A stretch of DNA of 64,000 nucleotides from Eledone cirrhosa. Taxonomy: Eukaryota. Positions 24,007 to 36,621 of this stretch are shown one piece after another. The stretch's first letter is position 1. Each line of letters begins with the position of its first letter. The notes beneath the pieces were generated by a model that saw only the letters and a list, made by a program, of their open reading frames with translations, was not told where the DNA came from and ran no database searches. A program made the position numbers and the translations under genes. The stretch is from contig OZ024760.1 in NCBI GenBank assembly GCA_964016885.1, forward strand, positions 1,612,001 through 1,676,000, given 5' to 3'.

Positions 24007-24340
24007 ATATACGATATTGAACAAATGGAAACTATATTTATAAAACCATATTTATTTCATTATACATATTTCAGGGATACCATATTAAAAATATGGCGTG
24101 CCTTCTTCAGATAAAATACAATATATAAGCAGTTTTACAAATAAATTTGACGTACCATAAATATTGATCAACTTCCATTTAAATGGAAGTTGATCAATAT
24201 TTATGGTACGTCAAATTTATTTATAAAACTGCTTATATATTGTATTTTATCTGAAGAAGGCACGCCATATTTTTAATATGGTATCCCTGAAATATGTATA
24301 ATGAAATAAATATAGTTTCCATTTGTTCAATATCGTATAT
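24007..24340. repeat. Near-perfect palindrome, no loop (centre 24180/24181)
   Basis: ...acttccattt|aaatggaagt..., arms ~160 bp with one short indel. Confidence 0.95.
24243..24308 (+). ncRNA. Minimal type I hammerhead ribozyme (mirror copy on - strand at 24053-24118)
   Basis: Stem I TATTTTAT/ATGAAATA; CTGAAGA; stem II AGG/CCT with inner CCATAT/ATATGG; GAAA-TATGTA-TA^. Confidence 0.78.
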
Positions 24341-33577: not shown

Positions 33578-33648
<71 letters not shown>

Positions 33649-33656
<8 letters not shown>

Positions 33657-33946
33657 TTAAAAAAATATATGATCAACACTACTGTGTTTTTTTTGCAAAA
33701 TGACAATAATTATTTAGCCAGATAGAAATACCTTAATTCAAGTACATATAGTCCGTCTGTATCGATCTAGAGTATATTAAATATTAAATCTATACTTACA
33801 GACGTAAAATGGCAACTATATTCTCTAGATCGATACAGACGGACTATATGTACTTGAATTAAGGTATTTCTATCTGGCTAAATAATTATTGTCATTTTGC
33901 AAAAAAAACACAGTAGTGTTGATCATATATTTTTTTAAATTATAAT
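33649..33946. repeat. Inverted repeat (124-bp arms, 50-nt loop)
   Basis: 33649-33772/33823-33946, directly after a (TA)n tract. Confidence 0.95.
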
Positions 33947-34497
33947 GTAATGCTCAGAAGTATTTTCTTAGAGCTTAATATTTGTAACTGACTACTAAAC
34001 TGAAATATATATATATATATAGGTTGTGAGTTCAATTCTCAGACCGGGTGATGTGTTGTTTCCTTGAGCAAGACACTTTATTTCACATTGCTCCAGTTTA
34101 CTCAGCTGTAGAAATGAGATGATAGGGACTGGGGTCCCTATCATTCCACTGCAAAGTGATTGTGGAGGTGCCACGGCAAAAAAGCACCCAGCACTCACTG
34201 TAAATGAGGTTGGTGTTAGGAAGGGCATCCAGCTGTAGAAATCAAGCCAGAATCAGTTCCCGTCCCACCCTTGCAAGCAGGGAAAAGCGGACGTAAAATG
34301 ATGATGATGATATATATATTATATATATAAAATATTTGTAAATCAAACTTTAGCTGTACTGTCCGCACCTTGTATATATATACACACACACATATATATA
34401 TACACACATATATACACATATATATATATTTATACATGCTATGTGTAACGTAATTGCAAAGGAAAAAAGAGTGCTCTATGTATAGAACAGAACTATT

Positions 34498-34718
34498 TAA
34501 TTAGAAAGTGAACAACACAGAATATAACTAATCCATTACCAAAGGTTTCTGGATCTCAGACGATAATAATATATATGTCTGGATCGTTTGTCAGATGTTA
34601 TAGATAAAATATATCTTTTATCTGACAAACGATCCAGACGTATATATTATTATCGTGTGTGACCCAGAAACCTTTGGTAATGGATTAGTTATATTCTGTG
34701 TTGTTCACTTTCTAATTA
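34498..34718. repeat. Inverted repeat (99-bp arms) carrying a mutated HHR in each arm
   Basis: 34498-34596/34620-34718; TTTAT-CTGACAA...GAAA-CCTTTGG-TA^ATGGA. Confidence 0.9.
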
Positions 34719-34857
34719 TATATATATAAACTTAGCTGCTATTGTTAGTGGTGTGAGTTTGTGAGACATGCTAAGTTCCGATACCATGTGCGTTATTATA
34801 TATACGCACACTATTCAGTTTTTTAATATACTTAGAAGTGATCAGGATACTAATTCT

Positions 34858-34937
34858 TCATCCACTGATGAGCAAGAATAGGTATTCCTCTTCACAATTA
34901 ATTTGCGAAACAGCATAGCCAAACGCTGTCTGGGTGA
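34858..34937 (+). ncRNA. Canonical type I hammerhead ribozyme
   Basis: Stem I TCATCCA/TGGGTGA; CTGATGA (34865); stem II GCAA/TTGC; GAAA (34907); stem III ACAGC/GCTGT; GTC at 34928-34930. Confidence 0.87.
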
Positions 34938-35086
34938 TTGGTAGTTACCACAATTCCGGTTTGTATTTATTTTCTTGATTTATTCTTAAATTGAGTCTGG
35001 CAAACCCTATTGTCTATAGTTAGTATTCTTTTCACCTTAGCAAATCTGGTCCCTTACGATTTGAACACATATATGTATATATCTGT

Positions 35087-35293
35087 AATTAGAAAATAGA
35101 ATAGCTTTCACTGTATTTTTTGACTAAAGAAATTTTAGTCTGATAATGGGGTTTAGAACCTTCAGATAAATGGAAAAAGATGAGTATTGTCAATACTCAT
35201 CTTTTTCCATTTATCTGAAGGTTCTAAACCCCATTATCAGACTAAAATTTCTTTAGTCAAAAAATACGGTGAAAGCTATTCTATTTTCTAATT
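35087..35293. repeat. Near-perfect palindrome (103-bp arms, 1-nt centre at 35190)
   Basis: ...atgagtattg-t-caatactcat... Confidence 0.95.
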
Positions 35294-35481
35294 TCACACC
35301 TGCCCACTGTTTCAAAACATATTTATTTGTATATATCTGTGTTTATCTTTCTTTTATATTCTATTATAATATACGGCTCGGAAAAATCTCTTTCCTAGAG
35401 CTATTTTATTGTAAGAGACTATTTTGAGTTTCTAACTCAATATATACCTTTTGATACACATATATATATATATATATATAT

Positions 35482-35953
35482 TAATAATATATATGCAGTA
35501 AGAAACACAGTAAACCGTGTGTCTAATATTACAAGGGTTGAAAAACCTTTCATTTACATTTCTGCTCCCTCACAAGTCGAGCTTATTAAGTTGTGTGTGT
35601 TGGACTGTTGTTTCTATTCAATACACGCTTACCACGTTTGACTAGCAGCGCACGAGGTGATAAATTTCATCTTTCTGTGTGAACGTTGGTACATAGTGTT
35701 AGTCGCATTTAATCAGATTCTCTCGCTGATGATGCCCAAGGATTATCTGTTACAAACACACTCAGGGCGAAACAGATTAGGGATAATCTGTCCGAGAGAT
35801 ATAATGGTTATTGAGGTGGTTTGTATAATAATATATTTTTATTTTATCATTCTGTCTGCTTCTTGGTTAAATATTTCAAACAAATGTGGTTTTTCAACCC
35901 TTGTAATATTAGACACATGGTTTACTGTGTTTCTTACTGCATATATATTATTA
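35482..35953. mobile_element. Mini-element with 66-bp inverted termini enclosing an intact HHR
   Basis: 35482-35547 is the reverse complement of 35888-35953; HHR at 35719-35799. Confidence 0.8.
35719..35799 (+). ncRNA. Canonical type I hammerhead ribozyme
   Basis: Stem I TCTCTCG/CGAGAGA; CTGATGA (35726); stem II GCCC/GGGC; GAAA (35769); stem III ACAGATTA-GGGA-TAATCTGT; GTC triplet at 35790-35792. Confidence 0.9.
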
Positions 35954-36621
35954 TACGGCTCAGTATTTTATACTTGGAGCTTAATAGTTACAGGGTTTCA
36001 ATTGGAGTTTTAACTCTAATTTTCATTTATATATATATATATATATATATTGATTGTCTGAGTTTCTGGGACTGGGAAGACCACCAAATCACAGAAGTAC
36101 TGAATACATGGTATGATACAGAAAGGCAATATTAGTAAAAGTAGAGGATCTACCAAGAGCTCAGTGGTTCGGCTTTGCCTTTCATTAGTAAAATTAATAT
36201 AAATTACTATAAATTAATATAAATTACAGTACCTGGGTGGATAGAGTCAAATTTTCCCCCTCCTTCCCACAAAAGGTCTGAACTTGTGTCGATGATCGAA
36301 ACCATTATAGCAACAAAGCTGTTATATACACAACTTACTTAATCTAATAAACACACATTTAATTACATATACGTGTTATTATACACAGCATTATATTAAA
36401 CAGCAATCTTCGGAAGTACAAGGGTTTAAATATTACAAGAGAAAAACAAGAGAAAAAAACAAACAAACTTGTGTATAATTATATTATGAAACTTAATAGT
36501 GAAAACTGAGAAACCACTCACTGCTGTCTCTCTCCACACCCCACCATATATATATATGTGTGTGTGTGTGCGTGAGTATATATATATATATAATAAGCAG
36601 ATACAGATATATATGTGTGTG

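Follow-up and report, generated by a model that had tools for sequence, protein, structure and literature searches.

Retrozymes, the tails of Penelope-like elements (PLEs) and pseudoknotted hammerheads are all known already. ORF-less tandem units with a type I hammerhead ribozyme have been described as non-LTR retrozymes (PMC7229834), and these retrozymes are argued to derive from PLEs (bioRxiv 10.64898/2026.07.22.740005). EN+ PLEs are reported to form partial tandems, to carry an inverted 5′ copy and a tail of 30–40 bp at one end only, and to use (TA)n targets (PMC8557442). According to PMC11167929, the tail lies between two start sites of the reverse transcriptase (RT), cutting and extension affect both strands of the DNA, and the PLE hammerhead requires protein for cleavage, although insertion in vitro can proceed without the ribozyme. 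An extra base between positions 9 and 10.1 is a reported trait of PLE hammerheads (PMC4209133; Cervera and de la Pena, 2014). Pseudoknots are described as common in hammerhead ribozymes; they are formed ahead of the remaining ribozyme structure, make cleavage faster and rescue hammerheads whose stem II is very short (PMC3088659).

In this study a stretch of 64,000 nucleotides from Eledone cirrhosa (contig OZ024760.1, positions 1,612,001 to 1,676,000; hereafter the window) was analyzed, which contains a copy of a short non-coding repeat present hundreds of times in the genome. The genome of 3.0 Gb is AT-rich and microsatellite-rich, and reverse-transcriptase fragments were the only convincing Pfam matches among the window ORFs; one such fragment, at 41854–42711 on the reverse strand, has a PHD finger at its C-terminal end. 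A DNA search of the genome returned 1428 candidate copies of the repeat, and the best of 40 that were scored were mostly 95–98% identical. Mapping 120 loci on one genomic period revealed a non-coding, tandem unit of approximately 473 nt, with a head-to-tail spacing of hammerhead units of 468–478 nt and arrays of two to three units. When four sequencing runs were mapped onto a two-unit copy, the family was seen in genomic data of the best-matching organism, and seven contigs of it were recovered from a second organism. One run, its kind unrecorded, gave a single 287-nt contig at a depth of 246 over the hammerhead, which we do not count as expression, and the sequencing-run search listed no RNA run carrying the family.

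The copy in the window is a monomer consisting of a 66-nt arm and a 485-nt arm that end at two different sites, A and B, respectively; with a single ribozyme, it could not by itself release a unit-length circle. It sits between the two halves of a (TA)n target, at 35460–35481, after the 3′ end of a neighboring hammerhead element of another family, and at 36033–36050. The inverted arm (35482–35547, reverse strand), in which the unit is read back from end site A, is identical at 65 of 66 positions to its source, the 3′ part of the unit up to the TA-rich site A (35888–35953, forward strand), and has a variable length in other copies. The direct arm (35548–36032, forward strand) covers about one period of the head-to-tail copies and ends at site B; it includes a GCTC...GAGC hairpin at 35564–35582 (forward strand), which follows site B in the unit, and the stretch of 79 nt from site A to site B (35954–36032). 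The first-pass annotation had described an element enclosed by 66-bp inverted repeats, which are present but do not form its termini, because the element continues to about 36032 and the right boundary given earlier falls 79 nt short of site B. No credible ORF had been recognized, and this holds: the longest frame over the element and the only long one (35642–36013, 123 aa from stop to stop) had no Pfam match. The unit thus lacks protein-coding capacity, as the definition of a non-LTR retrozyme requires, and it contains no ORF for RT plus GIY-YIG endonuclease, so it is not an autonomous PLE.

The intact GUC hammerhead proposed from the window sequence was recovered in full on the forward strand. 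Stem I is formed by 7 bp between 35719–35725 and 35793–35799; the core CTGATGA (35726–35732) is followed by one extra T at 35733, the extra base being among the listed traits of PLE hammerheads (PMC4209133). Stem II (35734–35737 with 35765–35768, 4 bp) carries a loop II of 27 nt (35738–35764), so that stem and loop occupy 35734–35768. The remainder, from 35769 to 35792, comprises the core GAAA (35769–35772), an 8-bp stem III closed by a variable loop (GGGA in this copy) and GTC at 35790–35792, with the cut predicted after 35792. CUGANGA, GAAA, an NUH triplet and three stems with stem I open, the structural features of a type I hammerhead, are therefore all found here. A match to Rfam is no part of this structural definition; none of the Rfam hammerhead models matched, whether at the gathering score or with E values of up to 10, a miss probably due to the long loop II and the extra base. 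The core pattern had 274 exact matches in the genome and its reversed control had none, which indicates that the hammerhead did not arise by chance. An isolated stretch of 106 nt folds into the hammerhead shape, with a z-score of only −1.6.

Conservation was assessed in 119 distinct copies, obtained from 169 matches in the 120 loci, 86 of which had been picked by a partial core pattern with loop II left free. The full core pattern occurs in 96 of the 119 copies, GATTATCTGTT likewise in 96, and the GGGA loop in only 46, loop III being variable. At loop III (window 35779–35784), 45 copies read AGGGAT and 18 have ATCCCT, the exact reverse complement, which amounts to an inversion of the loop between the stem III arms. 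The stem III of 8 bp makes a monomeric fold of the predicted ribozyme plausible, whereas metazoan minimal hammerheads have a short palindrome at this place (PMC4209133). A pattern search for relatives with another stem III returned 18 matches, all of which were rejected as such: 15 belong to one unrelated repeat, one is an unrelated single sequence and two are point mutants of the family.

Across the 120 loci, 3′ ends were confined to two sites: A, at window position 35953, and B, at about 36032, 79 nt further on. Both are TA-rich and run into (TA)n, and (TA)n adjoins nearly all intact 3′ ends; target-site duplications are unreadable inside these flanking tracts. Among 107 distinct insertions, 65 are head-to-head arm pairs and 41 have one orientation without an inverted arm. 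In the 51 inverted pairs with both ends assignable (14 further pairs with an unassignable end were left out of this count), 50 combine A with B, one has A at both ends and none has B at both. If the ends were independent, this pairing would have p of about 2e-14, a value to be read with the proviso that a few loci may be segmental duplicates. A GCTC...GAGC hairpin is found behind both sites, in 28 of 33 read-throughs of A and in 20 of 31 read-throughs of B. A short repeat, which we take to be SINE-like, has been inserted repeatedly at site A, inside TATTAT (loci L035, L036, L066, L073, L077, L084, and L091).

The 5′ ends carry no mark of ribozyme cleavage at the predicted site: 131 of 189 arms run through it, and 4 of 189 have a 5′ end within 5 nt of it, which is about the uniform expectation and thus no enrichment. 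The templates were thus uncut or re-ligated. Adjacent units differ at 1–4 of 300 bases, and the two arms of one insertion differ at 2–7 of 170 in 10 of 11 cases; as a signature of a monomer rolling circle these differences were set aside, because they fail to separate a circular from a multimeric template.

The pairing of an A end with a B end, which leaves a one-end tail between two start sites, is the signature of the PLE tail. Together with the partial tandems, the inverted 5′-truncated copies and the (TA)n context, it supports the earlier suggestion of a retrozyme-like or PLE pseudo-LTR unit, and the sequence evidence indicates that the unit was likely retrotransposed in trans by a (TA)n-targeting PLE. 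We infer this mobilizing PLE rather than identify it. PLE-like ORF pieces were detected by tblastn in 42 of 201 sequences, and two of them contain DKT, RWK-like and CxCx5C motifs, as described for the Hydra clade, which targets (TA)n. No autonomous PLE with the unit as its pLTR was found, either among the PLE pieces of these 42 sequences or among 30 copies from a single PLE family, and neither the long ORFs near the 120 loci nor ORF 3′ regions provided a PLE link. A candidate link at one locus (L055/L056), with no TA run between ORF and hammerhead, proved to be the inverted arm of a separate insertion.

PLEs of several kinds were encountered during these searches. L093, L113, L118 and L201–L230 contain very abundant PLE ORFs, which in L093 and L113 are Hydra-like by motif, and the protein end of L118 gave 150 scored matches of 85–100% identity out of 64096 candidates. 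Minimal hammerhead-like motifs of other PLE families lie in the window at 24251 (forward), 24110 (reverse), 37855 (forward) and 51350 (reverse), the 24110/24251 pair being an inverted insertion, and in L116 the 3′ region of a PLE ORF terminates with such a motif. L064, L102 and L104 belong to a PLE family with a 3′ region of approximately 1 kb and a hammerhead-like end with an altered core, CAGAAGA, and a long stem III. Two long near-perfect hairpins in TA-rich context, at 33646–33949 and 34494–34722 (arms of 132 and 103 bp), are possibly short two-armed insertions of related elements.

Like metazoan non-LTR retrozymes as described in PMC7229834 and bioRxiv 10.64898/2026.07.22.740005, the family is built of low-GC, non-coding units a few hundred bases long, arranged in tandem and each with one type I hammerhead. 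Many of its copies are solitary monomers, and a PLE origin is proposed for it as for them. The family differs in its short arrays of up to three units and in its mostly bipartite inverted insertions with PLE tails; expression and processing to linear and circular RNA monomers also belong to the definition of retrozymes. With the EN+ PLE pseudo-LTRs of PMC8557442, PMC11167929 and PMC4209133 it has in common partial tandems, an inverted 5′-truncated copy, a one-end tail, (TA)n targets and the extra hammerhead base between 9 and 10.1. Unlike EN+ PLEs, the unit has no ORF, and its tail measures 79 nt rather than 30–40; its end sites resemble the target in being TA-rich, while priming by the anole element involves no homology (PMC11167929). 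Putatively non-autonomous Chlamys elements, such as MRC1, resemble it as non-autonomous PLE derivatives with head-to-tail insertions, but they are green algal and belong to a clade described as mostly without canonical hammerheads (PMC8557442).

Loop II of this family has a conserved partner. Positions 35741–35759 of the loop are complementary to 35696–35714 (forward strand), directly upstream of stem I, at 16 of 19 positions in typical copies. The predicted duplex consists of helices of 8, 3 and 5 bp, and each of the 16 pairs holds in 104–116 of the 119 copies; over the whole structure, 97% of cells are paired vs 27–48% for slid partners. Subfamily changes are mostly one-sided and keep the pair (U-A to U-G, G-U to A-U, A-U to G-U), although some break one, and in 70 aligned copies two-sided covariation within the window family was not above shuffles. 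A pairing of an upstream CAGAU with loop II or the core is lost in older subfamilies and was rejected; the pairs at 35715–35716 hold in 88–91 of 119 copies. The copy in the window is itself atypical: position 35701 is A, as in 2 of 119 copies, rather than T, so that one pair of the distal helix is lost and the duplex weakens to −14.1 kcal/mol. Its predicted stem I has a probability of 0.93, 0.71 and 0.69 in some contexts, where the hammerhead fold wins, and of 0.35 with the inverted arm and 0.21 in a 140-nt slice, where it loses. Pseudoknotted hammerheads similarly combine Watson–Crick pairing between a stem loop and a flank beside the other stem with a short stem II (PMC3088659); the examples given there are of 4–6 bp, whereas the complement predicted here extends over about 19 nt.

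Three further families in the genome keep a loop II/flank duplex with different sequences. Their loops are of 28–33 nt on stems II of 2–4 bp, and each has a three-part complement to its own 5′ flank that ends in GUG:CAC. The median energy of the cognate duplex is −16.6, −15.9, −13.5 and −15.8 kcal/mol in the four families (n = 91, 23, 25 and 6), vs −4.1 to −12.4 for swapped partners and −4.8 to −6.5 for shuffled flanks. Matched changes distinguish families or subfamilies (GUGGAA:UUCCAC vs GUGAAA:UUUCAC; AUACC:GGUAU vs AUAUC:GAUAU), and the complement between loop II and the flank of stem I is kept through such changes across all four families. The evidence for selection on the duplex comes from these other families. 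The three align mutually at 63–71%, but the window family does not align to them by blastn, so its kinship with them rests on shared motifs. The GCTC...GAGC motif also lies behind their end sites. A MAFFT alignment of the four families lost the helix register and was excluded from the pair counts.

One of these relatives adjoins the element studied here. The unit at approximately 34735–35459 (forward strand; hammerhead at 34858–34940) is more abundant, with 2177 candidates, has the same two end sites, tail and loop II/flank duplex, and holds an internal inverted duplication of 106 bp at 35084–35296; the (TA)n that follows the B end of this unit is where the window element was inserted. The two others (L159–L200), with periods of approximately 520 and 550–600 nt, were found by a pattern that gave 730 matches in all vs 102 in the control, and have stems II of 2–3 bp and stems I of 8–9 bp; their stem III domain measures about 65 nt. 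Inversion junctions fall at the flank/loop II region in L190 and L199, and in L190 this creates a long perfect inverted repeat.

On balance we lean toward a unit of approximately 473 nt, moved in trans by a PLE, in which the predicted pseudoknot between loop II and the flank braces stems I and II for cleavage. In two families the core, GUC and a stem I of 8–9 bp are kept with a stem II of only 2–3 bp, which could hardly displace a duplex of −14 to −16 kcal/mol and thus favors coexistence of the duplex with the active fold. In all four families the proximal helix directly adjoins the ends of stems I and II, where a brace would be expected, and the rescue of very short stems II by pseudoknots (PMC3088659) fits this reading. 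Against it, nested folding lets the duplex replace stems I and II, just as an OFF fold would look, and with only 5–8 loop bases left to bridge a duplex some 19 nt long, stem II may be incompatible with the complete duplex. A real but rather unlikely alternative is an OFF latch: the duplex would be the first structure to form as the RNA is transcribed, would exclude both stem I and stem II and would preserve an uncut RNA to serve as template; such a latch would be opened only by a protein (e.g., the PLE RT) or late in the cycle. It would agree with the duplex exceeding a probability of 0.5 in 24 of 28 intact copies of monomer length, linear or circular, where stems I and II do so in none, with its preference in 63 of 119 short contexts, with the arms that cross the cut site (131 of 189), and with the few bases left to span the duplex. 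The protein-dependent cleavage of a PLE hammerhead that insertion does not need (PMC11167929) points the same way, as does the report that self-pairing blocks the hammerheads of plant retrozymes and of viroids (PMC7229834). The same source has most metazoan retrozyme circles predicted to leave the hammerhead free, whereas here the loop II complement dominates nested folding. However, the programs used draw nested folds only, without pseudoknots, and never show both folds together, so the result in 24 of 28 copies does not separate a brace from a latch, and both the intact core of relatives with a stem II of 2–3 bp and the brace-like place of the proximal helix speak against the latch. In a possible mixed case, part of the duplex braces and the whole duplex inhibits.

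Other accounts of loop II and of the element appear less probable. That the duplex serves protein binding, RNA stability or transport, with cleavage slow or incidental, is decidedly improbable: the distal GUG:CAC pairs are identical in the four families, as expected of a recognized surface, one of nine frog retrozymes is reported to have cleaved in vitro (bioRxiv 10.64898/2026.07.22.740005), and G12A copies exist (both arms of one insertion, L002/L004), but the families preserve the core, GUC, stem I and stem III, and changes in stem I are matched. The first-pass annotation had instead let loop II invade stem III or the GAAA core and so turn the ribozyme off. The complements on which this was based, AACAGAT and GATAATC, are both present in the window copy, and a 7-bp complement arises by chance in 2.9% of loop shuffles. 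The seven AACAGAU pairs hold in 111–116 of 119 copies, and in prefix folds from 35700 with the 3′ end at 35776–35782 they reach 0.73–0.88, so a half-made stem III possibly leaves room for a brief intermediate; these folds omit four bases of the flank strand, just as the previously suggested span of 35700–35810 would lose part of the flank partner. Once stem III is complete, however, pairing with AACAGAU accounts for about 1% and pairing with GAUAAUC for less than 0.01% of the ensemble (four contexts of the window copy), and the two exceed 0.5 in 6 and 0 of 119 short contexts, respectively, and in none of the 28 monomers. The GATAATC partner is present in only 46 of 119 copies and absent from 73 because loop III varies, other pairings already constrain both strands, and in the other families the flank duplex occurs alongside stem III sequences that are unrelated. 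Such a switch is no family feature, and we consider it very improbable as an explanation; what survives of the proposal is that loop II pairs, its conserved partner being the 5′ flank at 35696–35714 and not stem III or GAAA. Hardly credible at all is a MITE or other DNA element with 66-bp TIRs that captured a hammerhead, for which the inverted repeat of 65/66 in a TA context could be cited, but inverted arms of approximately 35 to 800 nt leave no fixed TIRs, 41 of the 107 insertions have no inverted arm, units stand head to tail, and the 79-nt tail is found beyond the repeat at just one of its sides.

The unit, sites A and B, the rule of one A and one B end, the hairpins and the complementarity in four families can be read from the DNA, and a possible cycle with a pseudoknot brace may be built on them. 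A tandem copy would be transcribed; the flank/loop II duplex would form first, the 3′ half would then add stems II, III and I, and all or part of the duplex might be retained as a tertiary contact. The PLE protein would bind the multimeric or re-ligated circular RNA at the two hairpins. Its endonuclease would cut both (TA)n strands, A and B would each serve as priming site for one of the DNA ends, and head-to-head joining of the two cDNAs would create the inverted arm and the tail at one end. In a joint reading that we regard as doubtful, a lineage of Penelope-derived RNAs would carry the latch, of 16–19 bp, to keep a hammerhead that is in itself self-sufficient off until it is opened by the PLE protein; the two repeated hairpins, spaced by 79 nt, would each seat one half of an RT dimer on the same RNA, and each DNA end of the (TA)n break would therefore have to use its own priming site.

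A long loop II/flank duplex was not found for PLE or retrozyme hammerheads in a limited check of the literature, whose supplements (Cervera 2014/2020; Craig 2021, file S2 with Hydra-element hammerheads; Perreault 2011) may show such a fold. In PMC8557442 and PMC11167929, the role of PLE hammerheads and the way in which inverted arm and tail come about are treated as open questions. The family described here offers a small, recently active and ORF-less substrate for questions on PLE hammerheads and tails, with two sharp features: the long loop II/flank duplex kept across four families, and the near-absolute use of different start sites at the two ends, with a similar hairpin behind each. If true, a latch opened by protein together with an RT dimer seated on two hairpins would explain both the role of the PLE hammerhead and the origin of the PLE tail, and the whole system would sit in an RNA of 473 nt, small enough to reconstitute.
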